64,000 nucleotides of DNA from a candidate division CPR3 bacterium GWF2_35_18 (GTDB lineage: Bacteria > Patescibacteriota > CPR3 > GWF2-35-18): contig MESW01000002.1 of the NCBI GenBank assembly GCA_001771135.1, positions 69,315 through 133,314 on the forward strand, in the 5' to 3' direction. Below, piece after piece: positions 11,901 to 40,223 of the stretch. A model generated the notes under the pieces. That model ran no database searches, was not told the DNA's origin, and was given only the letters and a program-made list of their open reading frames with translations. Within the stretch, counting starts at the first letter, position 1. Each line of letters opens with the position of its first letter. The translations under genes were made by a program, and so were the position numbers.

Positions 11901-12510
11901 CTCTGAAGATCCAAACTTCATCGGAGCTTCATGGGAAACATATACAACAACCAAAGAGTGGACATTTTCTGAGGGAGATGGAATTAAGGTAATATATATA
12001 AAGTATCGTGACTCCGCTCAGAATGAAAGCTTAATATACAGCTCCAGTATCATACTAGATACAGTAACCACTATAGATCTTACTAAGCTGGGAGGTAATA
12101 CCTTTAATACAGATATAACTGATTGGGAGATAGAAGATAATAAACCTAGCTTTGAAGGAACAGGGGAGGTAGATGCAGAGGTTGTAGTTACCATCAATTC
12201 TGATTCCATAATAGGAACTTCCATTGTAGATAGTGGTGGGAATTGGATCTGTACTCCAGAAACAGAGATTCCTGTTGGAAAGCATGAGGTAACGATAACC
12301 TCTACCGATCTAGCATCTAATACCGATACTCTCTCATTCAATCTTTCCGTACTTGGAGCTACTGATACACAAGAACAAATAGAAGGACCTGAAGAGCTAC
12401 CTAATACCGGAGTACAAACAATCATTATCTTCTTCATGGTAATAGCACTATTTTGGACAGCTACAAATCTGAGAATCATTGATAAACTTAGAAGTTTTAT
12501 GAAGAGATAA
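8929..12510 (+). CDS. Large LPXTG-anchored surface protein: signal peptide, about 14 NHL-type beta-propeller repeats, 3 tandem ~115-aa Ig-like repeats, Ig-like stalk, LPNTG sortase signal
   Basis: 1193 aa. N-terminal signal peptide. Repeated N(N/H)RVL(I/V)YN..IP..N..AD(V/I)V(I/V)GQPNMTSNTANNGG units. Three MMISED..GF.G.SWE.Y.T.K.W....GDGIKTVY.KY.D repeats. C-terminal LPNTG, then a hydrophobic segment and a basic tail (RIIDKLRSFMKR). Confidence 0.85.
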   Translation: MKKLSRHFCFLLLSFSLLFNSSFFQAPNLTYAINQTNTPATVVLGQNGFDACDRAPNYGDMRRGFSTPIQTLIVNNKLMVSDYANSRIFIYNTIPDSYLDVPDVVIGQNNLCNNLINKYQGPTIVAADTLYYPYYIYSDGTKLFVADYLNNRVLIYNEIPTSNNASADVVIGQPNMTSNTANNGGLGANTLYRPLGVYSDNTKLYIADTSNNRVLVYNEIPTSNNASADVVIGQPNMTSNTANNGGRAANRLNAPYAITVNNGKIYISDLSNNRVLIFNSIPTSNDASADIVVGQTNMTNGAANQGVAVASNTLSSPIYTQIANNKLYITDRGNHRVLVYNSIPIVNNTSADLVIGQPNMTSNTANNGGISSQTLNNPTGLSVTTNKMIITDSSNHRLLIFNTLPLTNNPEADIVIGQKDFTHNLSYMGAVNSQSLSAGWNTAFSDGQRLYVVDYANNRVLIYNSIPTDSNTPADVVIGQPDMTSNIANNGGLSAKSLNHPVEVFAYQNKLYISDYSNSRVLIFNTIPSTNFAEADIVIGQPNMTSNTANNGGLGANTLYYPGSTYTNGEKLIIADYNNHRVLIYNTIPTNNNASADVVVGQPNMTTRSINYGGLSASSLYYPYVVSSNGSNLVVTDYSNSRILIYNSIPTSNLSSADVVVGQPNMTSNGCNNGGINANTVCNPWYAYTDGIRLFIADTANYRILIYNSIPTNNFTNADILIGQLDFTHKDINQNGDASQYTLTAPYSVITDNHNLIVYDAMNYRVLFYPLGPQNTGVTTDSYSNSQNIDLTLSADDAKEMMISEDSGFTGVSWESFSTSKDFTLSTIEGSKTVYVKMRDYANYEGDTLSTTLTYDATSPTGSLTINSGATTTNSRGVTLTLSADDALSGVVSMMISEDSGFNGASWENYDTSKDWILTSGDGIKTVYAKYKDVAGNISERVSGNIEMDTNIPEGEIIIVSPTENAYVNSETVTLTLEGTDELTEVFEMMISEDPNFIGASWETYTTTKEWTFSEGDGIKVIYIKYRDSAQNESLIYSSSIILDTVTTIDLTKLGGNTFNTDITDWEIEDNKPSFEGTGEVDAEVVVTINSDSIIGTSIVDSGGNWICTPETEIPVGKHEVTITSTDLASNTDTLSFNLSVLGATDTQEQIEGPEELPNTGVQTIIIFFMVIALFWTATNLRIIDKLRSFMKR
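9397..9668 (+). repeat. Near-identical intragenic tandem repeat (unit about 183 bp, 61 codons) inside the LPXTG gene
   Basis: 9397-9485 and 9580-9668 are about 97% identical at DNA level. More diverged copies with the same period occur through about 10950. Confidence 0.6.
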
Positions 12511-12524
12511 ATTAGAAATATGGA

Positions 12525-13397
12525 TTAGAGTTCTTCGAGTTTGAAGGTTTCTTTGTAAGCAGTTCTAACATGTTCTAAGTATTTTTCTGTAGTTGATAAT
12601 CTTTTGTGTCCTACGATTTTTGAGATCAAAATGAGGCTAGTTCCTTTCATGAGGTGATGGGCGATAAAGGTATGTCGAAGGTCATTTACTTTTGCGTTTT
12701 TTACTCCCGCCTTACTAAAATATCGATCGATTGCAGATCGAATATTTCTGATTAATAGCGGTTTTCCAGTTTTAGTCACAAAAAGAGTTTCTTCTTTTGT
12801 GTTTGGCCTGATTTTTAAATATTCAGATATTGATTTAATTACAGATTTATTTAAAGGAACATTACGGCCTTCGTGTCCATGAGATGGTTGAATTATTAGC
12901 TCTCCGCTATTTTTTGTTTTATCAATAATTACATCTTCTACTCGAAGATTTCTCAATTCTCCAATACGAATACCTGTTTGTAAAAGAATTTCTACAATGG
13001 CAGCTATTCTTGGATCCTCACGACAAGAGTCTCTTAAAGCTCGATATTCAATTTTTGATAGAATTCTGGGAGCTGGAGTATCAAACTTGGGATGCGATAT
13101 TAAATTTGCAGGATTGTCAGTGATATATTCATTTAGTTCAAGAAAGCGGAAAAAAGTCTTAGTGCTATTTGTCTTTCGGGAGATACTTTTAGTGGTATAA
13201 TTTTCTTTTTCAAGTTTTGCCATGAAGGCTTGAAGATCGTTTTTGTTAATATGAGTTGTTCTAGTTTTACTTAAATTTTCTAGAAATTCTATAAGTTGTT
13301 CTATATCTTTACCATATGCAAGAATAGTCGCTTGAGAGCGGTCTTTTTCCGTAAGATGTTCTACAAATTTTTTGTGAGCTTCTTTCAATTCGATCAT
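12525..13397 (-). CDS. Tyrosine site-specific recombinase, XerC/XerD family (possible integrase). Start trimmed to the internal Met of the 12525-13514 ORF.
   Basis: C-terminus LRHTFIAHHLMKGTSLILISKIVGHKRLSTTEKYLEH matches the R..H..R..Y catalytic signature. The N-terminal SAM-like core-binding domain begins MIELKEAHKKFVEHL. The first 39 codons of the ORF look non-coding and overlap the neighbouring ORF. Confidence 0.8.
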   Translation of the reverse strand: MIELKEAHKKFVEHLTEKDRSQATILAYGKDIEQLIEFLENLSKTRTTHINKNDLQAFMAKLEKENYTTKSISRKTNSTKTFFRFLELNEYITDNPANLISHPKFDTPAPRILSKIEYRALRDSCREDPRIAAIVEILLQTGIRIGELRNLRVEDVIIDKTKNSGELIIQPSHGHEGRNVPLNKSVIKSISEYLKIRPNTKEETLFVTKTGKPLLIRNIRSAIDRYFSKAGVKNAKVNDLRHTFIAHHLMKGTSLILISKIVGHKRLSTTEKYLEHVRTAYKETFKLEEL

Positions 13398-16634: not shown

Positions 16635-17567
16635 ATGAACGATTCTAAGATAGTTATTTTTGACGCACATGCTTTGATACATCGAGCTTATCATGCTTTA
16701 CCACCCCTTACAACTTCGGAAGGGATTCCAATAAATGCTGTCTACGGATTTGTGAAAATAGTTTTAAATATATTAGAAACAATGTCTCCCAATTATGTTG
16801 CGGTGGCTTTTGATACAAGAACTCCTACTTTTAGACATGTGGACTACAGTGAATATAAAGCAAATCGTCCTCCTTCTCCAGATGATTTGAAAATACAATT
16901 TCCAATTGTTAAACAGATAGTTGAAGACCTTGGATTATCTTCTTTTGAAGTTGAAGGTTATGAAGCTGATGACGTTATCGGGGCTTTAGTTAATAAATTT
17001 GAAAAAAGTGTTTCCAACTCTGAAATATTTATAGTTACTGGAGATTTTGATGCTACTCAGCTTGTAAATGATCATATAAAGATTTTTACTCTTGGGAAAA
17101 GAATTGAAAATACTTCTATTTGGTCTAAAAAAGATTTGATGGAAAAATTCCAACTTTCTTATCCAAAACAGATTATCGATTATAAAGCTTTAAGAGGGGA
17201 TCCGTCGGACAATATTCCTGGCGTTAAAGGTATTGGGGAGAAGACAGCCTCAATATTATTAAAAAACTTTAAGAACCTAGAGACAATTTATGAGAATATT
17301 GATAAAGTAGAGTCAAAATATCGTCAAAAGTTAGTAGATGATAGGACAAATGCCTTTCTATCAAAGAAATTAGCGACTATTATCAGTGATGTGCCACTAT
17401 CTTTTAAAGTAGATGAATGTAAATATCATAGTTTTGATAGAGAAAAGATAGTACCTGTTTTGGAAAAATACGAATTTCGAAGTTTAATAAAAAAATTCAC
17501 GAGAAAAGATATCTCAAAAACAGTACAAAAAAAAGACGAAAATGAACAACTCTCCTTTATCGAATAA
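16635..17567 (+). CDS. 5'-3' exonuclease (FEN-like; N-terminal domain of DNA polymerase I) as a separate ORF
   Basis: 310 aa. MNDSKIVIFDAHALIHRAYHAL..., GYEADDVIG, and H3TH region (GIGEKTA). Confidence 0.85.
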   Translation: MNDSKIVIFDAHALIHRAYHALPPLTTSEGIPINAVYGFVKIVLNILETMSPNYVAVAFDTRTPTFRHVDYSEYKANRPPSPDDLKIQFPIVKQIVEDLGLSSFEVEGYEADDVIGALVNKFEKSVSNSEIFIVTGDFDATQLVNDHIKIFTLGKRIENTSIWSKKDLMEKFQLSYPKQIIDYKALRGDPSDNIPGVKGIGEKTASILLKNFKNLETIYENIDKVESKYRQKLVDDRTNAFLSKKLATIISDVPLSFKVDECKYHSFDREKIVPVLEKYEFRSLIKKFTRKDISKTVQKKDENEQLSFIE

Positions 17568-18855
17568 AAACAACAGAGAATCAGTAAGTATTTCAGACGA
17601 ATTACATCCATACAATGTTGATAATATAGATGGTCAGATACAAAACCTGTTAACAACTATGAGCAAAGTGGGATTTCTTATAGATGTTGAGGTTATAAAT
17701 AATCTAGAAGTGGAGGTTGAGGATCTTCTTAAAAAGTTATCTGTTAGGATATTTCATCATATCGGATATGATATAAACTTAAATTCGTCAAAGCAAATTG
17801 CAAAGTTATTATATGAAGATTTAGAGCTTCCGTCAGGTAAAAAGAAAAAAACCGGTTTTTCCACTGATGAAGTGACATTGAAAAAAATTAAAAAGCTACA
17901 TCCAATAATTCCCTTAATATTAGAATATAGAACGGTTTACAAATTAAAAAGTACCTACTTAGAATCATTAAGATGTCGTATTGAGGAAGATGGAAGGATT
18001 CATTCGACGTTTCTACTTGATGTGGCAAGTACTGGGAGGATAGTTAGCAGAGACCCAAATTTACAAAATATTCCGATCAGAGGTAGTTGGGGAGAAAAAA
18101 TTCGAAAAGCTTTTATCGTTCCTTGCGAGAAGATATTAATTGCGATTGATTATTCTCAAATAGATCTGCGAGTATTAACACATTTTTCTAAAGAATCAAA
18201 ATTAATAGAAGCTTTCAAGCAAAATCAAGATATTCATCTCTCAACAGCAATGGAGATTTTTAATAAAAAAGCTTCGGATATTACTGCTGATGAACGTCGA
18301 ATAGCAAAAACAGTGAATTTTGGCATTATTTATGGAATTAGTCCTCACGGACTTTCTGAGAGTTTAGAAATTAATCAAAAACAAGCTGCTTATTTTATCA
18401 AAACCTATTTAGATAAATATCCTCAGGTAAAACAGTATCTTGATCTAAGTCGACAGAATGCTTTAAAAAATGGTTATACGGAAACACTTGGTGGAGAAAA
18501 AAGATATATTCCAGAGTTAAAAAGTAAGAATCATTTTATTCGAAGTTCTGGAGAGAGAATGGCTATTAACTATCCTATTCAGGGAAGTTCCGCGGAGATA
18601 ATCAAATTGGCAATGTTAGATATTGATTGTGAATTTGTTAGACGAAAATTATCGTCTTCAAAGATGATTTTACAAATTCATGATGAATTAGTCTTTGAAG
18701 TAGAGAATGAGGAAAAAGATGCTGTAATAAAAATCGTAAAAGAAAAAATGGAAAATGTAGTAAAACTCATTATTCCGTTGAAAGTTAGTATTAAAGAAGG
18801 TGTCAATTGGGGAGAGATGACAGAAATTTTAAAATTGGAGATGGCAATAAAATGA
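17542..18855 (+). CDS. polA: DNA polymerase I polymerase domain only (no 3'-5' exonuclease domain)
   Basis: 437 aa. Family-A motifs: motif A DYSQIDLRVL, motif B RRIAKTVNFGIIYG, motif C QIHDELVFE. Overlaps the upstream exonuclease ORF by 26 nt in a different frame. Confidence 0.85.
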   Translation: MNNSPLSNKNNRESVSISDELHPYNVDNIDGQIQNLLTTMSKVGFLIDVEVINNLEVEVEDLLKKLSVRIFHHIGYDINLNSSKQIAKLLYEDLELPSGKKKKTGFSTDEVTLKKIKKLHPIIPLILEYRTVYKLKSTYLESLRCRIEEDGRIHSTFLLDVASTGRIVSRDPNLQNIPIRGSWGEKIRKAFIVPCEKILIAIDYSQIDLRVLTHFSKESKLIEAFKQNQDIHLSTAMEIFNKKASDITADERRIAKTVNFGIIYGISPHGLSESLEINQKQAAYFIKTYLDKYPQVKQYLDLSRQNALKNGYTETLGGEKRYIPELKSKNHFIRSSGERMAINYPIQGSSAEIIKLAMLDIDCEFVRRKLSSSKMILQIHDELVFEVENEEKDAVIKIVKEKMENVVKLIIPLKVSIKEGVNWGEMTEILKLEMAIK

Positions 18856-19961
18856 AAGTTGCAATTGTTCACGATTTTTTAAATCAATATGGAGGAGCTG
18901 AAAGAGTTGTAGAAGCAATTAAAATGATTTATCCAGAAGCTCCTATTTACACGTCGTTTTTTGAACCAGAGAAACTTCCTGAGAGAATGAGATCTTGGCA
19001 GGTAATCACTCCGAATTTTAAAAAAATACCCTTAATTAGAAGGTTTTCGAAGCAATATACTTTTTTGTTACCACTTGCCTTTGAAAGTTTTGACTTGCGC
19101 GATTATGACGTAATAATTTCTTCTACTGCTAACTTTGCAAAAGGAATAATTACGAAACCAAATCAGATTCATATCTGTTACTGTCATACCCCTCCGCGTT
19201 TTTTATATCACTATGAAACTGAATTTAACCGAAGGAAGATATCTATATATAAACCATTTTTGATCTTCTTAGACCACTATCTGCGAGTTTGGGATTACTT
19301 GGCGGCACAAAGAGTAGATTATTTTTTAACGAATTCATATAATACTCAACAAAGAATTAAGAAATTCTATCGGAGAGAATCAAAAGTTATTTATCCTCCC
19401 GTGGAGCTATCCTCTACAGGGCAAAATTCTCAATACAAAACCCAAAATTACGGAAAGTATTTTTTTATCGTATCTAGATTGGTTGCATATAAAAGAATCG
19501 ATTTAGCAATTAAAGCTTGTAATGAGTTGAATCTAAATTTAGTAGTAGCGGGAACAGGTAAAGATAAAAAGAAATTAGAAAAATTGTCGGGAAAAACGAT
19601 AAAGCTGTTGGGAAAGGTTTCTGATATTGAGTTAGCAGGTCTTTATAAAAACTGCGAGGGATTCATTTTTCCTGCAGGAGATGATTTTGGTATGACTCCA
19701 GTAGAAGCGATGTTATATGGAAAGCCTGTTATTGCCTATGGTAAAGGTGGTGTCTTAGAGTCTGTTATTCCAGGGAAAACAGGGGAATTTTTTTATGAAA
19801 ATAATGTAGTTTCTTTAAAAAAAGTATTAGCTAATTTTAATGGAAATAATTATTTAAAGGAAAACTGTCAAAAACAAGCTCAGAAGTTTAGTAAATCTAA
19901 ATTTAGTAAAGAATTACGAAATTTTGTTACAGAAAAATGGAAGGAAGAACAAAATGCCTGA
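18852..19961 (+). CDS. Glycosyltransferase, GT4 family
   Basis: MKVAIVHDFLNQYGGAERV... and C-terminal GT4 motifs (FIFPAGDDFGMTPVEAM). ATG overlaps the polA stop (ATGA). Confidence 0.75.
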   Translation: MKVAIVHDFLNQYGGAERVVEAIKMIYPEAPIYTSFFEPEKLPERMRSWQVITPNFKKIPLIRRFSKQYTFLLPLAFESFDLRDYDVIISSTANFAKGIITKPNQIHICYCHTPPRFLYHYETEFNRRKISIYKPFLIFLDHYLRVWDYLAAQRVDYFLTNSYNTQQRIKKFYRRESKVIYPPVELSSTGQNSQYKTQNYGKYFFIVSRLVAYKRIDLAIKACNELNLNLVVAGTGKDKKKLEKLSGKTIKLLGKVSDIELAGLYKNCEGFIFPAGDDFGMTPVEAMLYGKPVIAYGKGGVLESVIPGKTGEFFYENNVVSLKKVLANFNGNNYLKENCQKQAQKFSKSKFSKELRNFVTEKWKEEQNA

Positions 19962-20787
19962 GTTACCGGAGGTAGAAACAGTAAGATATGATTTGAATAA
20001 AAGCCTTTCGGGGTTTCAGATAAAAGATATTTCATGTAATACGACAAAGATATTACAGCCTTCTTTGAAGGAGGTTATCAAACATACTAAAGGATTAACG
20101 ATAAGCAGTTTTAATCGAAAGGCAAAACTTCTGATCGTTGAACTAAATAAAGATTGGAATTTTTTAATACATTTAAAAATGAGTGGAAGGTTATTAATTC
20201 GTGATCCAGGAGGTGTTGAAGATCGATGGACGAGAGTAATTATTGCTTTAGAAAGAAAAGGTATAATTAAAGAGTTACGATTTGCAGATCAGCGTAAGTT
20301 TGGGTACATAAAACTCATTAAAAAGGAAGAGCTTTCTGATATTTTATCAAATTATGGCCCTGAGCCTTTTGCGGATCTTAGTTTGCAAATTTTTACGAAA
20401 ATCTTGAAATCAAGCAGAAGAGCAATAAAAAAAGTATTAATGGACCAAGTCTTGATCTCGGGAATTGGAAATATTTATGCAAATGATGCACTATTCTTAG
20501 CCAAAATCCATCCGGAAACATCAGCCAATTATTTAAATCAGAATCAAATTAAAAATCTATTTGAAGCAATTGAAGAAGTTTTAAAAAGAGGTTTGAAATA
20601 TAGAGGAGCCTCTGATAACTCTTACTTAGATGCTTTTGGTAAAAAAGGTCAGTATCAAGAACATTTTCTTGTATATGGTAAAAATAAAGAAAACTGTCCA
20701 AACTGTGGTAGTGTCATCCAAAAAATAGTCGTAGGAGGAAGAGGGACTTTTTATTGTCCAAAATGTCAACTTCAAGAAAGGAAATAA
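19954..20787 (+). CDS. mutM: Formamidopyrimidine-DNA glycosylase (Fpg/MutM; Fpg/Nei family)
   Basis: N-terminus MPELPEVETVR (catalytic Pro2), H2TH, and C-terminal zinc finger CPNCG...CPKCQ. Confidence 0.85.
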   Translation: MPELPEVETVRYDLNKSLSGFQIKDISCNTTKILQPSLKEVIKHTKGLTISSFNRKAKLLIVELNKDWNFLIHLKMSGRLLIRDPGGVEDRWTRVIIALERKGIIKELRFADQRKFGYIKLIKKEELSDILSNYGPEPFADLSLQIFTKILKSSRRAIKKVLMDQVLISGIGNIYANDALFLAKIHPETSANYLNQNQIKNLFEAIEEVLKRGLKYRGASDNSYLDAFGKKGQYQEHFLVYGKNKENCPNCGSVIQKIVVGGRGTFYCPKCQLQERK

Positions 20788-21075
20788 ATGCCATTATTAG
20801 ATTCGTCTTTACTAAATCCGTATGTTTTGTTTTTTGGAGGAATTGTGATGATTATTTTTGGTTTAACTATCTCTGGTATGAAACCAACCGTAATTATTGA
20901 ATTTTGGATGAGATTTTTACTATATTTTTTTAAAAATCCTAATAAATATGAAAGAGAGCAAGAAAAAAATCCTAGTTTTAGCTTTGGGGGATGGATATTT
21001 TTATTTGGTTGGTTTTTAATAATTGCCGGAATTATTAGATTTTTGGGATTGGGGGTTGAGAATGCGTTTGAATAA
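20788..21075 (+). CDS. Small hypothetical membrane protein (2 predicted TM)
   Basis: 95-aa ORF with two hydrophobic segments. Overlaps the recF start. No recognisable family. Confidence 0.35.
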   Translation: MPLLDSSLLNPYVLFFGGIVMIIFGLTISGMKPTVIIEFWMRFLLYFFKNPNKYEREQEKNPSFSFGGWIFLFGWFLIIAGIIRFLGLGVENAFE

Positions 21076-22099
21076 AGTACTTTTAAGTAACTTTCGAAAT
21101 TTTAAAAAAGAATCATTTGATTTTCAACATACAACAATTATTTTAGCTGATAATACTCATGGGAAAACAAACCTTCTGGAGGCTATTTTTTATCTTTCAA
21201 CCGGAAAATCTTTTCGTGCGGAAAATGAGATTGACGTAATTAACTATGATAAGGATTTTGCGAGCATTGAAGGAGAGGTTGAAAATACTGAAGGAAAGGA
21301 AAAATTAAGGGTTTTTATCTCCGGGCAGGAACATCAACGTAAGCAGCTTCGAGTTAATGGAATCAATAGAATGATCTCAAACTTTTCTGGCCGTTTTAGG
21401 TCGGTTATTTTTACGCCAGAGAATTTTAATATTTTACAAGGTTCTCCAGAAATTCGTCGTCGGTATTTAGATAATATCTTAATCCAAATAGACAGAGAAT
21501 ATGTACGTAATTTAAGTCAATATCGAAAAGTGGTTTATCAAAGGAATCGTTTACTGGAAAGTATCCGGGAGAGAAAGTCAAAGGAGAATGAACTGGATTA
21601 TTGGAATGAAAAACTATTGGAATTGGGAAGATTCATTCAAGAAAGAAGGTTTCAGTTAATCTCATTCTTAAATGATGAGTTACTTAAATATAGTTTTTTG
21701 TATCGGAGTAAAAAGCAGATTACCTTGGTTTATAAAAATAATCTTGTGAGTGAGGAACGTTTGTTTTCGCATGCTCAGAAGGAAATAGCTGCAGGTCTAA
21801 CTCTCATTGGTCCTCATCGTGATGAAATGCTAGTTTTTTTAGATGGGAAGAAAATAGAATCTTTTGGTTCAAGAGGGGAACAGCGGCTAGGAATCTTGAG
21901 TTTATCTCTTTCTGCTATTGATTTTATTGAATATTGTGTGAAGGAAAGACCGATTCTTTTACTCGATGATATTTTTTCGGAGCTTGATAGTTATCATAAA
22001 AGTTCAGTACAAGATATTCTTGAAAAACAACAATCGATTATTACTACCACAGAGTGGGAGAATGGTGTTTCAAAAAAAGTTCAAATAATTGAGCTGTAA
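21062..22099 (+). CDS. recF: DNA replication/repair protein RecF
   Basis: N-terminal NFRNF...GxNTHGKTNLLEAI Walker A, SMC-like signature and Walker B (LLLDDIFSELD). Confidence 0.85.
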   Translation: MRLNKVLLSNFRNFKKESFDFQHTTIILADNTHGKTNLLEAIFYLSTGKSFRAENEIDVINYDKDFASIEGEVENTEGKEKLRVFISGQEHQRKQLRVNGINRMISNFSGRFRSVIFTPENFNILQGSPEIRRRYLDNILIQIDREYVRNLSQYRKVVYQRNRLLESIRERKSKENELDYWNEKLLELGRFIQERRFQLISFLNDELLKYSFLYRSKKQITLVYKNNLVSEERLFSHAQKEIAAGLTLIGPHRDEMLVFLDGKKIESFGSRGEQRLGILSLSLSAIDFIEYCVKERPILLLDDIFSELDSYHKSSVQDILEKQQSIITTTEWENGVSKKVQIIEL

Positions 22100-22152
22100 T
22101 GATTTTACTTCATTTCCTTCACAATTACCGCAAGTAATGCTAAACTATAATT

Positions 22153-23196
22153 ATGTTGGATTTTAAGTTCCGAATCAATAATAATATCCTGAAAAATATT
22201 AGTCAAATAGAGGCTTCCAAACAGATTATTGAAAATTCTCCCTTGTTACCTTATTATGAACGACAATTTCAAAAAGAGGCTGTAGTTCGCGCCGTGCATC
22301 ACTCTACTCACATTGAAGGTAATATGTTGGATATTGATGATGCCAAAAAAATCATCAACGGTCAAAAGATTGAATCTGCGGGTAAAGAGCGCGATTTACA
22401 AGATATCATAAACTATCGTAATGTGTTAAACTATATCGAAAGTATACAATCTAAAAGTGTCGATTTGAATCCGGTTTTACAGGTACATAAAATTGTCGGT
22501 TATGGAATTATTCCTGACGTTTATTGTGGTAAATTTAGAAATAAGCAGGTTGTGATTCGTAACACTAAAACTCAAAAAATCTCTTATGTTCCTCCGTCTT
22601 ATTTAGAAGTTGAAGATAAAGTATCCGAACTTTTATCTTGGTTAAAAAGTCAAAAAGAAGCAGATATTCATCCGGTTATTAAATCTGGACTGTTTCACTG
22701 TCAATTTGTAAAAATCCACCCTTTTGTAGATGGAAATGGAAGAACCGCCAGGGCTTTAACGACATTAATACTCTATTTGGATGGTTACGATATAAAAAAA
22801 TTTTTTTGTTTAGATGAATATTATGATCATGATTTAAAAAGATATTATCAAGCTCTACAGTCTGTTACCGAGTTCGATCAAGATTATACTTTTTGGCTTG
22901 AATATTTTACAAATGGATTGTTAGAAGAGTTTCTTAAAATCAAACAAAAGGTTCTTAAGATTAGTCGTGATCAAAGAATTAAAAAATCAATTGGTCAGGT
23001 TTATCTTACCGAAAGACAGGAAAAAATTGTTGAATACCTTCAAGAAATTGGACGTTTACAGAATCAAGATTTCCCAAAAATCTTATCAAATGTTTCGGAA
23101 GACACTTTTTTGCGTGATTTAAAAGAGCTTATTGTTAAAAAAGTGATTAAAAAAAGAGGAAAAACTAAAGCTGCATTTTATGAATTAAAAAATTAA
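22153..23196 (+). CDS. Fic-family protein (AMPylase fold) with intramolecular inhibitory motif and C-terminal winged-helix
   Basis: Fic motif HPFVDGNGRTAR. Upstream inhibitory (S/T)xxxE(G/N) motif STHIEGN. Confidence 0.85.
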   Translation: MLDFKFRINNNILKNISQIEASKQIIENSPLLPYYERQFQKEAVVRAVHHSTHIEGNMLDIDDAKKIINGQKIESAGKERDLQDIINYRNVLNYIESIQSKSVDLNPVLQVHKIVGYGIIPDVYCGKFRNKQVVIRNTKTQKISYVPPSYLEVEDKVSELLSWLKSQKEADIHPVIKSGLFHCQFVKIHPFVDGNGRTARALTTLILYLDGYDIKKFFCLDEYYDHDLKRYYQALQSVTEFDQDYTFWLEYFTNGLLEEFLKIKQKVLKISRDQRIKKSIGQVYLTERQEKIVEYLQEIGRLQNQDFPKILSNVSEDTFLRDLKELIVKKVIKKRGKTKAAFYELKN

Positions 23197-23209
23197 TTTA
23201 GGATATACT

Positions 23210-24997
23210 ATGCTCTTTCAAGATCTTGCTAATTATTTTGAAAAACTAGAAAAAACTACATCTCGTAATGAAATTACGAAAATTTTGAGTGAACTTTTCA
23301 AAAATCTTTCCGTAGAAGAGGTGAATGTTGTTTGTTATCTGTCGTTGGGGAAATTGAAGCCATCATATGAATCTTTAGAATTTAATCTTGCCGAAAAGAT
23401 GATAGCCGAACTTTTATCTCGAATTAGTCAAAAGACAAAGGAAGAAATAAATAAAGATTTTAATGTTATGGGAGATTGGGGTGATTTGGCGGCTAACTTG
23501 ATTAAAAGAAAAACGAGTGATCTGACAATCAAAGATGTTTATAAAGAGCTTCTTTCTTTAGCCAAAATTGAGGGTTATGGATCTCAAGAAGTAAAGATAA
23601 ATAAGCTTTTATCCTTATTTTCGCATATAAATAGTGCATCTGCTAAATATGTTTTACGTGTTATTCTAAAGAAGTTAAGACTCGGTTTCTCGGATATGAC
23701 CATTCTTGATGCGTTGTCTTTTATGGAAGTCGGAGACAAGAGTCTAAGAAAAGAGATCGAAGAATCATACAACACAGTTGCGGATATTGGAAAAGTTGCT
23801 TCGTATTTTAAGGCTAAAGGTTTAAAAGGTTTAAAAGAGCTATCTGTTACTCCGGGAATACCTGTAATTCCTTCTGCGGCAGAAAGGCTTCCGAGTGCGG
23901 AAAAGATTTTTGAAAAGATTGGAGTTTGTTTGTTAGAACCTAAAATCGATGGTTTTCGGCTCCAAGTACACTTAAATAAATTAAAAACTGAGATTTCAGA
24001 TGATAACCCTCTTTTTGCAAAAGAAGAGCCTTTTATACGATTCTTTTCTCGAAATTTAGAAGATATGACGGGAATGTTTCCGGAGATTAAAGACGTCGTT
24101 TCTAAAATTGATTGTGAATCTTTGATTATAGAGGGAGAAGCAGTCGCTTTTAATCATAAAAATAATCGGTTTTTACCTTTTCAATTAACCATATCGCGTA
24201 AAAGAAAGTATGACATTCAGGAAAAATCTACAGAGCTACCTTTGACTCTATTTGTATTTGATTTGCTTTATTTAAATGGAAAAAGCTATATTAATGAGTC
24301 TCTAATTGAAAGAAGAAAAATATTAGCAGAACTCATTCCAGAAAATGTAAATAGTCTGCAACTAATTCCACAACAGAAGGCAGTTTCGGTGCAAGACATC
24401 TCCAAATATTTTCTCGAAAAAAAGAAAGCCGGTTTAGAAGGAATAATGGCAAAAGTTCCTGATTCTTATTATGAAGCTGGATCAAGAGGATTCCATTGGA
24501 TTAAGTATAAAAGAGAAGAAAGTCAAGGCCTTGAGGATAGTATTGATGTTGTTGTTTTAGGTTATTATTATGGTCAGGGAAAAAGGACAAGTTTCGGTAT
24601 TGGCGCTTTATTGGTTGGAGTTTATAATAAGAAAGGCGAGATTTTTGAAAGTATCGCTAAAATTGGTACAGGAATTAAAGATGAAGAGTTTATAACTATT
24701 AAAAAGGATTGTGATTTATTAAAAAGAAAACTCCCTCCCAAAAATGTGATTGTCCCTAAAGCTTTAATTCCAGATGTTTGGGTGGAGCCTCAAATTGTTG
24801 CTGTTATCCTTTCTGATGAGATAACAAGATCGCCGCTACATGCAGCTGGTGCAAGTAAAGATGGGAAAGGTTATGCTTTACGTTTTCCACGTCTTACTAC
24901 TTGGCAAAGAAAAGATAAGAGCATTTATGATATAACAACTGTATCAGAAATCGAAAGACTTTATCAAAATCAAAATAGGAAATCTTCTAAAAATTAA
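23210..24997 (+). CDS. ATP-dependent DNA ligase
   Basis: 595 aa. Motif I LEPKIDGFR (KxDG), adenylation and OB-fold motifs. Confidence 0.85.
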   Translation: MLFQDLANYFEKLEKTTSRNEITKILSELFKNLSVEEVNVVCYLSLGKLKPSYESLEFNLAEKMIAELLSRISQKTKEEINKDFNVMGDWGDLAANLIKRKTSDLTIKDVYKELLSLAKIEGYGSQEVKINKLLSLFSHINSASAKYVLRVILKKLRLGFSDMTILDALSFMEVGDKSLRKEIEESYNTVADIGKVASYFKAKGLKGLKELSVTPGIPVIPSAAERLPSAEKIFEKIGVCLLEPKIDGFRLQVHLNKLKTEISDDNPLFAKEEPFIRFFSRNLEDMTGMFPEIKDVVSKIDCESLIIEGEAVAFNHKNNRFLPFQLTISRKRKYDIQEKSTELPLTLFVFDLLYLNGKSYINESLIERRKILAELIPENVNSLQLIPQQKAVSVQDISKYFLEKKKAGLEGIMAKVPDSYYEAGSRGFHWIKYKREESQGLEDSIDVVVLGYYYGQGKRTSFGIGALLVGVYNKKGEIFESIAKIGTGIKDEEFITIKKDCDLLKRKLPPKNVIVPKALIPDVWVEPQIVAVILSDEITRSPLHAAGASKDGKGYALRFPRLTTWQRKDKSIYDITTVSEIERLYQNQNRKSSKN

Positions 24998-25009
24998 AAG
25001 AGTAAAACT

Positions 25010-26326
25010 ATGGAAAAAAGATATATTGCTGATTTACATCTTCATTCAAAATATTCACGCGCTGTTTCTAAGGATATGAATATCCCTGTAATGTGGTTAT
25101 GGGGAAACAAAAAGGGAATCAATCTAATCGGTACTGGAGATTTTACACATCCCTTTTGGATTCATGACTTGAAACAGGATTTAGAAGCTATGGGAAACGG
25201 TTTTTATAAATACAAAGGAGATCAAGAAGGAAAAGGTCCTTTTTTTGTTCTATCTTCAGAGATAAGCTGTATTTATAGTCAAGGCGGTAAAACTAGGAAA
25301 ATTCACATTGTTTTCTTATCTCCCTCCATTGAAGTTGCCGAGTTAATCAATAAATCACTTTCTGAGATTGGTAACATTACTTCCGATGGAAGACCAATTT
25401 TAGGTATCAGCGCTTTGAACTTAGTAAAAAAGATCAAAGCGATTTCATCCGAAGTAATTGTTATTCCAGCGCATATCTGGACCCCTTGGTTCTCTCTCTT
25501 TGGCGCGAACTCAGGATTCGACTCAATTGCCGAGTGTTTTGGTGATGTAAGCCAAGATATAATTGCTGTGGAAACAGGACTTTCTTCTGATCCTGCCATG
25601 AATTGGAGAATTCCAGAATTAGATAATAGACAGATTGTTTCTTCCTCTGATGCTCATTCTCCAGCAAAACTAGGAAGAGAAGCGACTGTTTTTGAATCTG
25701 ATTTTAGCTACACCGGTTTAAAAAGTGCTTTGTCAGGAAAATCGGCAGAGAATAAAATTTTGTATACAATTGAATTTTTTCCAGAAGAAGGTAAATATCA
25801 TTACACTGGACACCGAAATTGTGGCGTAAAGTATAATTTAGAGGACTTGAGAAAAAAGGGGAAAATTTGTCCGGTATGTGGTAAACAATTAACAGTTGGA
25901 GTAATGCAAAGAGTTGAGGATCTTGGAAAGATTTTGGAATCAGATTTACAAATTGAAGATTGGTATTTAGGAGAAAATAAGGTAAGAGGAATAAAATCAG
26001 GAAAATTAAAGAGACCTCCTTATGTGATGTTAGTTCCTTTAATTGAGATAATTTCGGAAGCACTAGAAGTTGGTGGTTCTTCTAAGGCAGTTACTGAAGA
26101 ATATGAAAAAATCATAAATGGAATTGGTACGGAATTTAAAGTATTACTTACTGCTTCAGAATTAGAATTAAAAGTGTATGCTCAGGAAAAAGTTGTAGAA
26201 GGAATTCTGAAATTAAGGAAAAGAGAGATAAGTGTTGATCCAGGGTTTGACGGTGTCTTTGGAAAAGTGAAGATTTGGGGTAAGGAAAAACCGGAAGAAA
26301 TACAGGAACAGATAACATTATTTTAA
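25010..26326 (+). CDS. PHP-domain endonuclease, Endonuclease Q (EndoQ)-like
   Basis: DLHLHSKYSRAVS (PHP HxH), LIGTGD, SDGRP, PAHIWTPWFSL, SDAHSP..LGRE, and zinc finger GKYHYTGHRNCG...CPVCG. The overall order resembles archaeal EndoQ (TIGR00375-like). Confidence 0.6.
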   Translation: MEKRYIADLHLHSKYSRAVSKDMNIPVMWLWGNKKGINLIGTGDFTHPFWIHDLKQDLEAMGNGFYKYKGDQEGKGPFFVLSSEISCIYSQGGKTRKIHIVFLSPSIEVAELINKSLSEIGNITSDGRPILGISALNLVKKIKAISSEVIVIPAHIWTPWFSLFGANSGFDSIAECFGDVSQDIIAVETGLSSDPAMNWRIPELDNRQIVSSSDAHSPAKLGREATVFESDFSYTGLKSALSGKSAENKILYTIEFFPEEGKYHYTGHRNCGVKYNLEDLRKKGKICPVCGKQLTVGVMQRVEDLGKILESDLQIEDWYLGENKVRGIKSGKLKRPPYVMLVPLIEIISEALEVGGSSKAVTEEYEKIINGIGTEFKVLLTASELELKVYAQEKVVEGILKLRKREISVDPGFDGVFGKVKIWGKEKPEEIQEQITLF

Positions 26327-26456: not shown

Positions 26457-26553
26457 GTCTTCCGATTTGGAAGACAAGAGATTTTATCATGATAAAATCT
26501 TCGGTTAATACGTAACTACATCTTTGCAATCTCAAAGATGTAGGGTATATAAT
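26457..26553 (+). promoter_or_regulatory. Leader/operator region: three consecutive inverted repeats, including a perfect 20-bp palindrome, overlapping a TTGCAA-18-TATAAT promoter
   Basis: GTCTTCCgatttGGAAGAC (26457-26475). GATTTTATCATGATAAAATC (26480-26499, perfect palindrome). CTACATCTTTGcaatctCAAAGATGTAG (26516-26543), overlapping the -35 at 26524-26529. The -10 is at 26548-26553. Confidence 0.35.
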
Positions 26554-26590: not shown

Positions 26591-26944
26591 ATGGTAGAGG
26601 AAATAAAAAAAGAAACAAAGCAAGAAGCTCCTAAACAAGGAACCGTTGTAAGTAATAATGATTCAAAAATTAAAGCTGCTGTAGCTTGTATTCCTATAGT
26701 AGGACTTATCCTTTATTTTATTGAAAAGGATGATCAGAGAGTGCGTTTTTATGCCGCACAAGGAATTTTAGTGGGTATTTTGGGTATTGTATTAGGAGTA
26801 ATTCCTTTTGTTAACTTTATTGCTTGGTTAGCCGAATTGGTTTTAATTATTGTCACAGCCTTAAAAGCTTATCAAACAGATGAGAACTATAAATTGCCAA
26901 TTCTTGGTGATTGGGCTGAAAAGTGGGCTGCTAAAAAAATGTAA
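26591..26944 (+). CDS. Small hypothetical membrane protein
   Basis: 117 aa. Strong RBS (AGGAGGTGA). Two TM helices after a charged N-terminus. Confidence 0.5.
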   Translation: MVEEIKKETKQEAPKQGTVVSNNDSKIKAAVACIPIVGLILYFIEKDDQRVRFYAAQGILVGILGIVLGVIPFVNFIAWLAELVLIIVTALKAYQTDENYKLPILGDWAEKWAAKKM

Positions 26945-27101
26945 TTTAATTCTTAAAATATTTTTAAATCCCATCTTTTATACTAAAAAAGGTGGGATTT
27001 TTTTTGAAGCGGGAACATGTTAAAATTGAAGCTATTATTTAATTATTTGTGCCGCGATTTTATTATTAGTTGAAGAATGTTAGATTGAGGAGATTGAGGA
27101 T

Positions 27102-27641
27102 ATGAGAATTATTGTTGGACTTGGTAATCCGGGTCGGAAATATGAGAAAACAAAACACAATATCGGTTTTCAGGTTATCGATGAGCTTGCTTCAAAGTTA
27201 AACTCAAGCTTTTGGAAAGAAAACTCCAGATTTGAAAGTCTAATTTCAGAGGGAGATCTTGAAGGTAACAAGTTACTACTTGTTAAGCCTCAGACCTTCA
27301 TGAATAATTCTGGCGAAGCTGTATATAAAGTCGTTAATTTCTATAAAATACCACTGACTGATTTGCTTATTGTGCATGATGATTTTGATTTACCATTGGA
27401 TGATATTAGATTACGTGTCAATTCTGAAGGAAAAAGCAGTCATAACGGGATCCGTTCGATCGTAGAGAGATTAGGAACACCAGAATTTGATCGACTTCGA
27501 GTGGGAATTGGAAATGATCTAATTATACCAAAAGATAAATATGTTTTGAGTAATTTTGAAAATGAAGTAAAACATATCAAAGAAATAATTGGAAAAGCAT
27601 TAGACAAAATTATCGATTGGATTACTAATGAAAAACGTTAA
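27102..27641 (+). CDS. pth: Peptidyl-tRNA hydrolase
   Basis: MRIIVGLGNPGRKYEKTKHNIGF... is the canonical Pth N-terminus. Confidence 0.9.
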   Translation: MRIIVGLGNPGRKYEKTKHNIGFQVIDELASKLNSSFWKENSRFESLISEGDLEGNKLLLVKPQTFMNNSGEAVYKVVNFYKIPLTDLLIVHDDFDLPLDDIRLRVNSEGKSSHNGIRSIVERLGTPEFDRLRVGIGNDLIIPKDKYVLSNFENEVKHIKEIIGKALDKIIDWITNEKR

Positions 27642-27957
27642 AATATCCAAGTTTGCAGAAAAAGTTTATAAGTTTACGAAAAAAATTCCTAAAGGAAAGG
27701 TCTCTACTTATGGACAGATCGCTAAAGCATCAGGTTATGGCAAATCTTCTCGGGCAGTAGGAAATACTTTACACAAAAACCCCTTTGCTCCAGTAGTTCC
27801 TTGTCATCGAGTAGTAAATAGTAATGGTTTTCTAGCTAAAAACTTTGGAAGCGGTGGAATAAAATCGCAACAAAAACTATTAGAATCAGAAGGAATTGTT
27901 TTTGATATTTCGGGAAAGGTGGATCTAAATAAATTTCAGTATTTTTTTAAGGAGTAA
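27628..27957 (+). CDS. MGMT-family DNA-binding domain protein (O6-alkylguanine-DNA alkyltransferase C-domain; active-site PCHRV)
   Basis: 109 aa. VPCHRVVNSNG motif. Confidence 0.8.
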   Translation: MKNVKISKFAEKVYKFTKKIPKGKVSTYGQIAKASGYGKSSRAVGNTLHKNPFAPVVPCHRVVNSNGFLAKNFGSGGIKSQQKLLESEGIVFDISGKVDLNKFQYFFKE

Positions 27958-32973: not shown

Positions 32974-33708
32974 GTGAAAAAAACTATCAAATTAATTAGT
33001 CTAAACATTGAAGGAGATAATCACCTAGATAAAGTGATTCCTTTTTTAGTTTCCGAGAATCCTGATATTATCTGTTTACAAGAGGTTTTTAAACATAATT
33101 CCGAGACTATTGCAAATAAAATTAAGAGAAAAGATTATTTTTTCCCCATGGCAAAAATGTTTGAAAAACGATATACCAAAAAATCATTGGGTATGTTGTG
33201 GGGGATTTCTTTTTTAACCAATTTGGAATTCAAAAATATCCAGTGTGAGCAATATTTTGGTAACGAAAAAGTTGTTCCTTCATATTTGGGTGGAGGAGGA
33301 CTCTGTAATCGAATTTTAGCTTGGGGAAATGTCAAGAAAGAGGGTAAGGAACAAACGATTGCAACGACTCATTTTACGTGGAGTTCAAAGGGAAATACGA
33401 CAGTGATCCAAAGAAGATCATTCAATAAATTAAATAAGATCCTGGATAAAGTAGGAGATTGCGTTTTATGCGGCGATTTTAATGCTCCTCGAGGCGGAGA
33501 GATTTTTACGGCATTGTCAAAAAGGTTCACAGATAATATTCCGGTTCAGGTGAAGACGACCGTGGATGAAAATTTGCATCGAAAAAAGGGATTGCAAGTT
33601 GTTGTGGATGGACTGTTTACTTCTTCTAACTACAAAGCCGAAAATGTGAAGATTATTGGTGGAGTTAGTGATCACAAAGCGATTGTGGCAACGATATTTA
33701 AGATATAA
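32974..33708 (+). CDS. Endonuclease/exonuclease/phosphatase (EEP) family protein
   Basis: ISLNIEGDNH...ICLQEV, GDFNAP, SDHKAI motifs. Confidence 0.75.
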   Translation: MKKTIKLISLNIEGDNHLDKVIPFLVSENPDIICLQEVFKHNSETIANKIKRKDYFFPMAKMFEKRYTKKSLGMLWGISFLTNLEFKNIQCEQYFGNEKVVPSYLGGGGLCNRILAWGNVKKEGKEQTIATTHFTWSSKGNTTVIQRRSFNKLNKILDKVGDCVLCGDFNAPRGGEIFTALSKRFTDNIPVQVKTTVDENLHRKKGLQVVVDGLFTSSNYKAENVKIIGGVSDHKAIVATIFKI

Positions 33709-34573: not shown

Positions 34574-34774
34574 TACCCATGCTTCTCGTATGAGAAGTTT
34601 CTTTTTTCGTTCTTTAACATTCAAGAAGTGGTAGGAATTTAGGCGAAGTGTTGTCTAAATTCTTAGTACAAGACTTCGTCAATTTTTTTTGTAATCATTG
34701 TTAAACCAAGTAATTGGTTTAACTCGTTTACTCTTTATGATATTTCCTAAATTTATTTAGGATTTGTCATATTT

Positions 34775-36276
<1,502 letters not shown>

Positions 36277-36375
36277 TAAGGAGTATCACTCCAACTTCAC
36301 GACTGGAGTCTTTATAGGTGTATGCTACAACCATAAAGGTAGCAGTTCCTACCACTTTTTGAAAGTTAAAGATAC

Positions 36376-36406
36376 AAAAAACGGAGCTTGTTGCTCCGTT
36401 TTTTTG
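36376..36406 (+). terminator. Rho-independent terminator-like hairpin downstream of 16S
   Basis: ACGGAGC-ttgtt-GCTCCGT followed by T7. Confidence 0.6.
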
Positions 36407-36459
36407 TTTATGATATATTCAATTCGTTTAAAAATTGGAGTTTCGCAGCTTGTTAATTT

Positions 36460-36534
36460 GGCGCGGTAGCCAAGTGGAAAGGCAGGAGTCTGCAAAACTC
36501 CTACGCGTCGGTTCGATTCCGACCCGCGCCTCCA
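36460..36534 (+). tRNA. tRNA-Cys (GCA)
   Basis: Acceptor GGCGCGG/CCGCGCC, anticodon loop CTGCAAA, T-loop TTCGATT, CCA encoded. Confidence 0.85.
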
Positions 36535-36545
36535 AAGATAAATAG

Positions 36546-36622
36546 GGGCGATTAGCTCAGGTGGTTAGAGCGCCAAACTGATAATTTGGAGGTCCATGGT
36601 TCGAGTCCATGATCGCCCACCA
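36546..36622 (+). tRNA. tRNA-Ile (GAU)
   Basis: GGGCGAT...anticodon loop CTGATAA...TTCGAGT...ATCGCCC-A-CCA. Confidence 0.85.
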
Positions 36623-36627
36623 TAGAA

Positions 36628-36657
36628 TAAAAACTACGTTATTAACGTAGTTTTTTT
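36628..36657 (+). terminator. Rho-independent terminator after tRNA-Ile
   Basis: ACTACGTT-att-AACGTAGT followed by T7. Confidence 0.65.
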
Positions 36658-36678
36658 CGTTTGTGTTATACTTTTTTT

Positions 36679-37140
36679 ATGAATAAAAAGATTCAAATTC
36701 CAGGAATTGATTATATCGGTATAACGACTCCTTTCTACTGTAATGATGGTAAGGGTAATTTTCTTTTACATCGCAGAAGTAAAAATTGCCGTGATGAACA
36801 GAGAAGATGGGATTTGGGTTCGGGTCAATTAGAGTTTGGGTTAACTCCAGAGCAAAACGTTCTTAAAGAGGTTTTTGAAGAATATGGTTGTAGTGGAACT
36901 ATTCAAAGTCAACTTCCGCCACACTCTATTTTTCGAAAGCATCAAGGGGTAGATACTCACTGGTTGGCAATTCCTTTTTTTGTACAAGTTGATCCACAAA
37001 AAGTAAAGATTAGTGAACCCACTAAAATTGATGAGATTGCCTGGTTTACTTTAGATAATTTACCAACTCCTTTACATTCTGGTTTTTCCTATACTCTAAA
37101 GACTTACAAACAGTATTTTGAAAAGTATAAAAAGCGATAA
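36679..37140 (+). CDS. NUDIX-like hydrolase (hypothetical), located between 16S and 23S
   Basis: Nudix-like GSGQLEFGLTPEQNVLKEVFEEYGC. ATG at 36679, whereas the track start 36661 is TTG. Confidence 0.6.
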   Translation: MNKKIQIPGIDYIGITTPFYCNDGKGNFLLHRRSKNCRDEQRRWDLGSGQLEFGLTPEQNVLKEVFEEYGCSGTIQSQLPPHSIFRKHQGVDTHWLAIPFFVQVDPQKVKISEPTKIDEIAWFTLDNLPTPLHSGFSYTLKTYKQYFEKYKKR

Positions 37141-38217: not shown

Positions 38218-38280
38218 GGTTTAAAGAGAGTGGGTAAGTAGATTCATCTACTTACCCCTCCTTTAATAAAAAGAGGAAAA

Positions 38281-39796: not shown

Positions 39797-39805
39797 TTTT
39801 AGTAT

Positions 39806-40086: not shown

Positions 40087-40223
40087 AAATTCAATTGCGT
40101 AAAAAATTATAAACTTTAAGTACTAAATACTAAATGTTTAGGATTTAGAAATTATAATTTTTAAAACCTTTGTTCTTTAAAAACTGGATAGAATTTCAAC
40201 ATCTTCGTATTTTAGAATTTTAA

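Follow-up and report, generated by a model that had tools for sequence, protein, structure and literature searches.

A conserved pairing of Fic and ATP-dependent DNA ligase genes, and an Endonuclease Q homologue with a predicted clamp-binding tail, in a housekeeping gene array of a candidate division CPR3 bacterium

The genome of candidate division CPR3 bacterium GWF2_35_18 (Patescibacteriota) carries, on contig MESW01000002.1 (assembly GCA_001771135.1), a block of six plus-strand genes that includes a Fic protein, an ATP-dependent DNA ligase and a homologue of Endonuclease Q (EndoQ). The window analysed here is a 64 000 nt (64 kb) stretch of this contig (positions 69,315 to 133,314), and the block occupies positions 19954–26326 of the window. 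An initial annotation, made from the sequence alone, had read the block as a DNA repair cluster. All six open reading frames (ORFs) were confirmed, head-to-tail, at the coordinates given there; the gene identities were borne out by family matches and translations, and every motif quoted was found in the translated products. The genes of the block are:

19954–20787, plus strand: Fpg/MutM glycosylase-lyase, 277 aa (NF002211, 269 bits; TIGR00577, 262.9 bits, cut-off 203.3)
20788–21075, plus strand: ORF of 95 aa with two hydrophobic segments, from the translation
21062–22099, plus strand: RecF, likely start ATG at 21062 (TIGR00611, 288.6 bits, cut-off 172)
22153–23196, plus strand: Fic protein, class II, 347 aa (Pfam PF02661)
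23210–24997, plus strand: Lig1/archaeal-type ATP-dependent DNA ligase, 595 aa (TIGR00574; Pfam N, M and C domains)
25010–26326, plus strand: EndoQ family nuclease, 438 aa (PfuEndoQ match, TIGR00375 and structure model)

Intergenic gaps from Fpg through EndoQ were 0, −14, 53, 13 and 12 nt, and the tight packing continued upstream through genes for a GT4 glycosyltransferase, a polymerase-only PolA and a stand-alone 5′-3′ exonuclease (FEN). GC content was flat across the region, at 0.32–0.34; this uniformity gives no sign of insertion and the composition is native. The region belongs to a long housekeeping array of co-directional, tightly packed genes, in which every protein is from a known family.

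The initial annotation treated Fic as an unexpected, interposed member of the block, and the reverse was found to hold. Metagenome contigs were scanned with the Fic family alignment and 80 Fic loci were taken, 72 of which were informative. The ligase gene was adjacent to Fic in 71 of these and one locus was without a ligase; in 68 the ligase followed Fic directly in the same orientation, often with an overlap, and in three the two genes were divergent. Among loci with at least 7 kb of downstream sequence, 34 of 35 had the ligase and 24 of 35 had EndoQ, while RecF lay upstream of Fic in 28 of 37 loci. The pair occurred in three contexts: within the RecF to EndoQ backbone (context A), in a second arrangement (context B) of two small membrane genes, a UppS-like gene, Fic, ligase and glycosyltransferases with no RecF, Fpg, EndoQ or peptidyl-tRNA hydrolase (Pth), and in the divergent arrangement (context C). 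Of the 21 loci whose flanks were complete on either side, six belonged to context B. The pair was also present on contigs labelled Berkelbacteria, Gottesmanbacteria and WWE3, and Fic was a neighbour of none of six ligase homologues (46–49 % identity) from Dependentiae-type contexts, in which the gene order was SecD-PlsY-Lig. In the window the two genes are separated by 13 nt that include an AGGA ribosome-binding site. These comparisons identify the Fic–ligase pair as the selectively conserved unit, with Fic the constant partner of the ligase in Patescibacteria and EndoQ a looser neighbour. The pairing is robust, appears to be unreported in the literature searched and is the sole new lead of the region.

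Small ORFs of two families were seen between Fic and the ligase in related loci. A 61 aa membrane protein was encoded there in 14 loci (family f17: L086, L089, L094, L099, L104–L106, L108 and others) and a four-helix protein of the 23S-rRNA-IVP type in four (family f19: L167, L097, L102 and L133). Such ORFs occurred in both main contexts.

The active-site loop of the Fic protein, HPFVDGNGRTAR, at residues 189–200 (nt 22717–22752) fits HxFx(D/E)GNGRxxR, and the inhibitory-helix motif STHIEGN lies N-terminal to the Fic core at residues 51–57 (nt 22303–22323). Residues T52, E55, G56, N57, H189, N195, G196, R197 and R200 were invariant in the family alignment, whose members have a length of approximately 349 aa and are 46–72 % identical across class-level Patescibacteria lineages. 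The SoFic model of PADLOC, which has no curated threshold, matched residues 37–340 (E 2e-51). The NCBIfam SoFic equivalog NF046030 gave 71 bits against a cut-off of 550, and this score, being far below the cut-off, does not establish orthology with SoFic. In the structure model (pLDDT 83), helices at 287–328 are followed by a two-strand wing, together forming a C-terminal winged helix, and PF08220 was recorded on several Fic homologues. The best full-length folds were 4rgl (Dde_2494), 8cil (CbFic2) and 3eqx (SoFic), with 3zcn also matched. Sequence and model together mark the protein as class II and SoFic/CbFic2-like, combining an auto-inhibited AMP-transferase core with a winged helix of DNA-binding type. 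SoFic both adds AMP to EF-Tu and removes it, and it binds its own promoter (bioRxiv 10.64898/2026.07.09.737422); CbFic2 changes between AMPylation and deAMPylation upon binding DNA through its helix-turn-helix (HTH) (PMC10628234).

The ligase scored 386.7 bits with TIGR00574 (cut-off 217.8) and matched the Sulfolobus ligase 2hiv over its full length (E 2.8e-99), with the adenylation lysine K245 in the motif KIDGFR (nt 23942–23959). No recognisable clamp-binding tail was present in the Fic-linked Patescibacterial ligases. Clamp-type ends (QxxxF/QxxLF) were seen in two of six ligases without a Fic neighbour, KQASIFE and KQQLLFEK (P0273 and P0257); P0273 is labelled candidate division TM6, and P0257 comes from a JGI contig that carries no label and has the Dependentiae-like gene order SecD-PlsY-Lig. 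A search of the ligase for an AMPylation site (Ser, Thr, Tyr or an insertion) returned four weakly discriminating columns, none with a hydroxyl residue. No LigA-like ORF was found among the annotated proteins of the 64 kb.

The last gene of the block encodes a PHP and zinc-finger protein containing the blocks DLHLHSKYSRAVS, LIGTGD, PAHIWTPWF, SDAHSP and GKYHYTGHRNCG...CPVCG. The view of the initial annotation that this protein is EndoQ-like was upheld by sequence, fold and individual residues. A phmmer search against the Protein Data Bank matched PfuEndoQ structures only (5zb8 and 7k30–7k33; E 2e-49, query residues 7–422). An AlphaFold2 model built on 22 homologues (pLDDT 87.6, pTM 0.89) retained the three-domain fold of a PHP domain, a zinc-binding domain and, at the C-terminus, a helical DNA-binding domain. 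Foldseek placed 5zb8 and 7k30 at the top (E 1.8e-35, TM 0.78 and 0.85, 423 columns), and the next-best fold was 7rty (PsfC; E 1.5e-4, TM 0.35). PF27218 (MJ0043_C) has been recorded for a protein identical to that of the window.

In the HMMER alignment, the metal ligands H10, H12, E84, H99, H155 and D214 correspond to Pfu H8, H10, E76, H84, H139 and D193, R128 and H216 to Pfu R114 and H195, and W160 to the Trp144 wedge. The base pocket (H155, G190, L191 and S192; Pfu H139, G169, L170 and S171) and the DNA-contact residues K262 and Y263 (Pfu K243 and Y244) are likewise kept, and a 7-residue insertion lies between the equivalents of Pfu E76 and H84. The roles of these residues in PfuEndoQ have been set by mutagenesis and crystal structures (PMC5961232; PMC8307549). 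Five of the six PHP metal ligands were invariant in 22 homologues from the candidate phyla radiation (CPR). Sequence and model agree in identifying the product of the last gene as a bona fide bacterial EndoQ.

The C-terminus of EndoQ is disordered in the model, a low-confidence tail ending in QITLF (nt 26309–26323). Q434 and F438 were invariant in the 22 CPR homologues, and a Q-x-x-L-F end was present in 65 of 80 bacterial EndoQ homologues from many phyla. Judged by its sequence, QITLF is a peptide of the β-clamp-binding type, located where archaeal EndoQ has its PCNA-binding PIP box. A β-clamp motif in bacterial EndoQ homologues has already been reported by Shiraishi et al. in 2016 (PMC4858679), so the EndoQ tail is not new. 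The upstream FEN also has a tail of this type, ending in QLSFIE (nt 17547–17564), and Q-x-x-L/F-[FLI] was found in 15 of 16 FEN homologues from related loci.

The description of EndoQ in the initial annotation as archaeal-type and known mainly from Thermococcales did not hold, as the family is widespread in Bacteria, a bacterial enzyme has been characterised and NCBI already names some CPR homologues 'endonuclease Q family protein'. A word-indexed search gave at least 8000 EndoQ matches, many of them in Patescibacteria. A species-level genome scan detected homologues in at least 600 bacterial species, and exhaustive HMMER searching of representatives of clusters made at 50 % identity yielded 923 clusters (E≤1e-30). 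The EndoQ-centred genome loci used here are the best 80 of at least 600 species-level matches; they come from Patescibacteria, Omnitrophota, Thermodesulfobacteriota, Nitrospirota, Aminicenantes, WOR-3, Chloroflexota, Bipolaricaulota and Firmicutes, with identities of 43–51 %. The CPR proteins form a clade of their own and are 50–73 % identical among themselves. EndoQ was still described as mainly euryarchaeal in reviews up to 2021 (PMC8307549). The EndoQ of this CPR bacterium adds one more member to a known enzyme family, and annotation pipelines already recognise it.

Several further features of the family were observed. A His at the first zinc position was found in 78 of the 80 bacterial homologues (L004–L083) and constitutes a domain-level signature; His can bind zinc. 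Among the 150 best cluster representatives (P0361–P0510), 101 were at least 900 aa long. Three long representatives that were scanned consisted of an N-terminal EndoQ and a C-terminal UvrD/PcrA helicase of superfamily 1. Outside CPR, the nearest bacterial EndoQ relatives appear to be mostly such fusions, of 900 to 1250 aa; examples are P0380, P0384 and P0373, and one in locus L075 at 9914–13375. A QxxLF end was also present in 74 of the 101 long representatives. The fusions explain why several stand-alone CPR EndoQs are misnamed 'DNA helicase UvrD', and they suggest that strand removal after the EndoQ nick is helicase-driven. No UvrD gene was seen in the 64 kb window, and no publication on EndoQ–UvrD fusions or on EndoQ in CPR was found in the literature searched. 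Inteins interrupt some homologues of 850–940 aa (P0363, P0364 and P0365), where Intein_splicing was matched, in one case with a LAGLIDADG homing endonuclease, and these inteins sit within or near the conserved PHP core. Two EndoQ loci (L007 and L061) came from metagenome-assembled genomes labelled DPANN (Nanoarchaeia and Micrarchaeota). Both had a CPR-like DUF4870 neighbour, and the EndoQ of one ended in QxxLF; mis-binning of CPR contigs or gene transfer may account for them.

The initial annotation had proposed that EndoQ nicking and sealing by the adjacent ligase form a self-contained repair module, and that conservation of the adjacency be checked in other CPR genomes. The flanks of the 80 EndoQ-centred loci were searched with the window proteins. 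A ligase was found near, and upstream of, EndoQ in seven of the 80 loci and in five of the 50 whose upstream flank reached at least 5 kb. All seven were of Microgenomates type (Curtiss-, Woese-, Shapiro-, Levy- and Daviesbacteria) and shared the backbone GT4-Fpg-RecF-Fic-Lig-EndoQ-DUF4870-Pth-MGMT-AcP, which includes non-repair genes. In Saccharibacteria, Parcubacteria and every non-CPR phylum among the 80 loci, no ligase was found near EndoQ. Where both genes were present (n=39), they were in direct succession in five loci, separated by one gene in 14 and by two to six genes in 20, the intervening genes encoding glycosyltransferases, a P-type ATPase and membrane proteins. An 813–892 aa gene between ligase and EndoQ in several relatives was considered as a UvrD-type helicase and rejected, being a P-type ATPase. 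Separately, seven loci had an Fpg gene co-oriented with EndoQ and 2–6 kb downstream of it, six labelled Omnitrophota (L021, L023, L029, L031, L045 and L068) and one labelled 'Patescibacteria group' (L035), a second and independent EndoQ–Fpg neighbourhood. Adjacency of ligase and EndoQ is thus a conserved synteny of the Microgenomates/CPR3 lineage and not a dedicated two-gene module.

The block is flanked on both sides by co-directional genes, and the region contains the following further features:

16635–17567, plus strand: stand-alone 5′-3′ exonuclease/FEN, 310 aa (Pfam 5_3_exonuc_N and 5_3_exonuc)
17542–18855, plus strand: PolA, polymerase domain only, 437 aa (Pfam DNA_pol_A at residues 51–425, E 2e-139)
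18849–19961, plus strand: GT4 glycosyltransferase, a non-repair backbone member kept upstream of Fpg in related loci (Pfam Glycos_transf_1)
22118–22146, plus strand: promoter-like site TTCACA-17-TAAACT with TG in the RecF–Fic gap, weak, a consensus match only
26591–26944, plus strand: DUF4870-like membrane protein, kept downstream of EndoQ in related loci
26966–27000, plus strand: intrinsic-terminator-like hairpin, 14 bp stem then a T run, the best such hairpin in the region
27102–27641, plus strand: Pth, a non-repair backbone member (Pfam Pept_tRNA_hydro on the identical gene in L001)
27628–27957, plus strand: short MGMT-like protein, 109 aa (Pfam DNA_binding_1 on the identical gene in L001)

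PolA lacks a 3′-5′ exonuclease domain and its gene overlaps that of FEN by 26 nt. DNA polymerase I is thus split into FEN and PolA, and the same split was seen in locus L084; in most related loci GT4 directly follows FEN and PolA was not detected nearby. Fpg has the N-terminus MPELPEVE and a C-terminal CxxC...CxxC zinc finger (CPNCG...CPKC), and it scored above the curated cut-offs of both NF002211 and TIGR00577. The 95 aa ORF had no match in Pfam, NCBIfam or PADLOC and was recognisable in the closest relatives, L084 and L085, only. The DUF4870-like gene has its own promoter-like site (26524–26553) and a strong ribosome-binding site. A promoter scan of the region found 53 sites, with 56.8 expected from shuffled sequence, and hence no excess. 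Pth, too, is kept downstream of EndoQ in related loci. The MGMT-like protein consists of the DNA_binding_1 domain only, with PCHRV at residue 58; its gene shares 14 nt with the end of pth, and several relatives carry it too in their synteny block.

Elsewhere in the window lie a gene for a RadA/Sms-like recombinase (45495–46892) and one for an ExoIII-family (Exo_endo_phos) nuclease (32974–33708), so that repair genes are scattered over the 64 kb and are not confined to the block. The window also encodes a 1193 aa surface-type protein with NHL-repeat and Big_13 matches (8929–12510) and an rRNA operon (34773–43444) in which the 16S (34773–36275) and 23S (40213–43191) genes are separated by 3.9 kb. 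This spacer holds three tRNAs and four protein ORFs, one Nudix-box-like (36661–37140) and three for membrane proteins (37708–38217, 38281–39255 and 39245–39796).

Taken together, the region is likely to be a housekeeping array with a clamp-tethered EndoQ and a conserved Fic–ligase core, in which Fic would be a DNA-binding, reversible AMP transferase or regulator tied to nick sealing. By analogy with the biochemistry of PfuEndoQ, EndoQ would flip out a deoxyuridine (dU), a deoxyinosine (dI) or an apurinic/apyrimidinic (AP) site and nick the strand immediately 5′ of the lesion. The QITLF tail would hold the enzyme on the β sliding clamp, in the way that archaeal EndoQ is held on PCNA by its PIP box. 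The nick would be followed by strand-displacement synthesis by the polymerase-only PolA, flap removal by the stand-alone, clamp-tailed FEN and sealing by the Lig1-type ligase. PolA and FEN are encoded 6–8 kb upstream of EndoQ in the same array. Such a clamp-tethered route from EndoQ through PolA and FEN to the ligase is a reasonable inference and is independent of the adjacency of ligase and EndoQ. Fic and the ligase would most likely be co-expressed, and Fic may act as a DNA-binding reversible AMPylase/deAMPylase, as an autoregulator or as both, controlling the ligase or a partner of the ligase at DNA nicks. The linkage gives some support to the suggestion of the initial annotation that Fic acts on a repair or replication factor.

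Several observations weigh against this interpretation. For EndoQ, the initial annotation had proposed a search with TIGR00375: the match ran end to end (E 7e-49), but its 167.1 bits lay under the NCBIfam curated cut-off of 326.6. The protein is therefore a family member and not a certified equivalog, and its equivalence to the characterised enzymes is inferred. The putative zinc site, H268-x2-C271...C287-x2-C290 (nt 25811–25879), has His in place of the first Pfu Cys, and the first PHP His, which is present in the window protein, is Q or E in some CPR homologues. For a putative operon, the promoter scan gave no excess over shuffled sequence, and the sole convincing terminator sits beyond the next gene, after DUF4870. 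For Fic and the ligase, the evidence of a link is gene adjacency alone. Many loci have a small ORF between the two genes, no Fic–ligase fusion was found among the top homologues of either protein, and no Ser, Thr or Tyr column separated 62 Fic-linked from six Fic-less ligases. No published link between Fic and an ATP-dependent ligase was found in the literature searched, and the sole SoFic target so far reported is EF-Tu, which is not a DNA enzyme (bioRxiv 10.64898/2026.07.09.737422).

How far the pairing of Fic and ligase reflects a shared function was weighed against two other accounts. A functional two-gene module with a real biochemical link, in CPR3, Microgenomates, Gottesmanbacteria, WWE3 and Berkelbacteria, is a tentative proposal and a rather doubtful one. 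In such a module the DNA-binding Fic might control or proofread nick sealing, either by reversibly AMPylating the ligase or a clamp or nick-processing partner, or in an aprataxin-like role, by stripping AMP from abortive 5′-adenylated DNA or from the ligase. The pairing in 71 of 72 loci, its persistence in three contexts, its absence from homologues in other phyla and, by analogy, the DNA-regulated (de)AMPylation of CbFic2 point this way. That adjacency reflects shared transcription or regulation only, with a SoFic-like Fic that AMPylates EF-Tu, binds its own promoter through the winged helix and has no biochemical tie to the ligase, is possible and carries some weight without being probable. 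The SoFic-like architecture (the PADLOC match, and folds 3eqx and 3zcn), the known activities of SoFic on EF-Tu and on its own promoter DNA, the promoter-like site just upstream of Fic and the failure to find a ligase feature specific to Fic-linked lineages are consistent with it. However, the pair persists through three contexts, including inversion to the divergent arrangement, which simple operon inertia would not predict, and the NF046030 score leaves orthology with SoFic unestablished. An anti-phage abortive-infection toxin of SoFic type, or some other mobile or defence gene located here by chance, is a very improbable reading of Fic. The strong match to the PADLOC SoFic defence model would fit, as would the small ORFs that often follow Fic in related loci, which recall the small downstream AS1 antitoxin that neutralises a defence-type SoFic (PMC12249575). 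Yet in the window no small ORF follows Fic (the gap is 13 nt), no other defence genes adjoin it and its composition is native, and across Patescibacteria the family has a uniform length, vertical syntenic conservation at 46–72 % identity and a fixed position beside a housekeeping ligase.

The remaining alternatives concern EndoQ. A self-contained, co-selected operon in which EndoQ nicks, the adjacent ligase seals and Fic is an incidental insertion is improbable. In the window the two genes lie on one strand with 12 nt between them, both occur within 8 kb in 24 of the 35 Fic-centred loci with enough downstream sequence, and any EndoQ pathway ends with ligation. However, the EndoQ nick lies 5′ of the lesion (PMC5961232), so the lesion stays on the 5′ end and strand displacement and flap removal must precede ligation; productive resealing thus needs a polymerase and a flap nuclease. 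Furthermore, no ligase lies near EndoQ in 73 of the 80 loci, those of Saccharibacteria and Parcubacteria among them; EndoQ comes directly after the ligase in no more than five of 39 loci, unrelated genes separating the two in the others; and the block also conserves the unrelated GT4, Pth, DUF4870 and AcP genes. Nor is Fic incidental, being the most constant neighbour of the ligase. The alternative that the PHP protein is another phosphoesterase (a histidinol-phosphatase, or a PolX-type or RNase AM-like protein) is effectively refuted. The protein had no Pfam-A match in a scan of the Pfam library and fell below the TIGR00375 cut-off, but EndoQ structures matched it over its full length, whereas other PHP folds were more than 30 orders of magnitude worse in E value with TM of at most 0.35. 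All EndoQ-specific residues, the zinc domain and PF27218 are present. The initial annotation had named a model of histidinol-phosphatase or PolX type, lacking the zinc finger and DNA-binding domain, as the result that would count against EndoQ; both domains are present in the model.

The EndoQ results correct the picture of this enzyme, which is broadly present in uncultivated bacteria, usually clamp-tailed and often fused to UvrD. The pattern points to clamp-tethered, nick-initiated excision of deaminated bases in bacteria, a route of relevance to reduced genomes of low GC content such as the present one (approximately 33 %). If a Fic–ligase module exists, it would be the first link of Fic enzymes to DNA ligation. 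To our knowledge, few physiological targets of Fic enzymes have been identified, and we know of no described regulation of bacterial Lig1-type ligases. The pair provides a directly testable hypothesis on the control of nick sealing in unculturable organisms, for which recombinant proteins are sufficient.

Comparison with characterised systems places each of the three proteins within a known family. EndoQ of the window resembles PfuEndoQ and Thermococcus kodakarensis EndoQ (5zb8 and 7k30) in its three-domain fold, metal ligands, R114 and H195 equivalents, Trp wedge, H/G/S base pocket and a clamp-binding-type peptide at the extreme C-terminus. It differs from PfuEndoQ in having approximately 30 % identity, an H-C-C-C zinc site in place of C4 (C249, C252, C268 and C271), the 7-residue insertion, a QxxLF tail instead of a PIP box and a mesophilic CPR host. 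A bacterial member of the same family, the EndoQ of Bacillus pumilus, was characterised by Shiraishi et al. in 2017, with nicking at dU, dI and AP sites reported (cited in PMC6202378). The EndoQ domain of the UvrD fusions is 44–51 % identical to the window protein and most fusions end in QxxLF, but they carry a C-terminal UvrD/PcrA helicase of approximately 700 aa, whereas the window EndoQ is stand-alone. The ligase shares with Sulfolobus Lig (2hiv), Pfu Lig (2cfm) and human LIG1 the DNA-binding, adenylation and OB domains and the KxDGxR lysine; unlike these archaeal and eukaryotic enzymes, it is bacterial and constantly preceded by a Fic gene. Coxiella burnetii CbFic2 (8cil) and Dde_2494 (4rgl) are, like the window Fic, Fic plus HTH proteins, but the match is at TM of approximately 0.6 only, with a large rmsd from domain orientation, and CbFic2 is by contrast secreted as an effector, with host histone H3 as its target. 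SoFic of Shewanella oneidensis (3eqx and 3zcn) shares with the window Fic the class II organisation, the N-terminal (S/T)xxxE(G/N) helix, the HxFxDGNGRxxR loop and the C-terminal winged helix. SoFic targets EF-Tu; the window Fic, at approximately 20 % identity and below the equivalog cut-off, differs from it in being chromosomal, syntenic and paired with a ligase.

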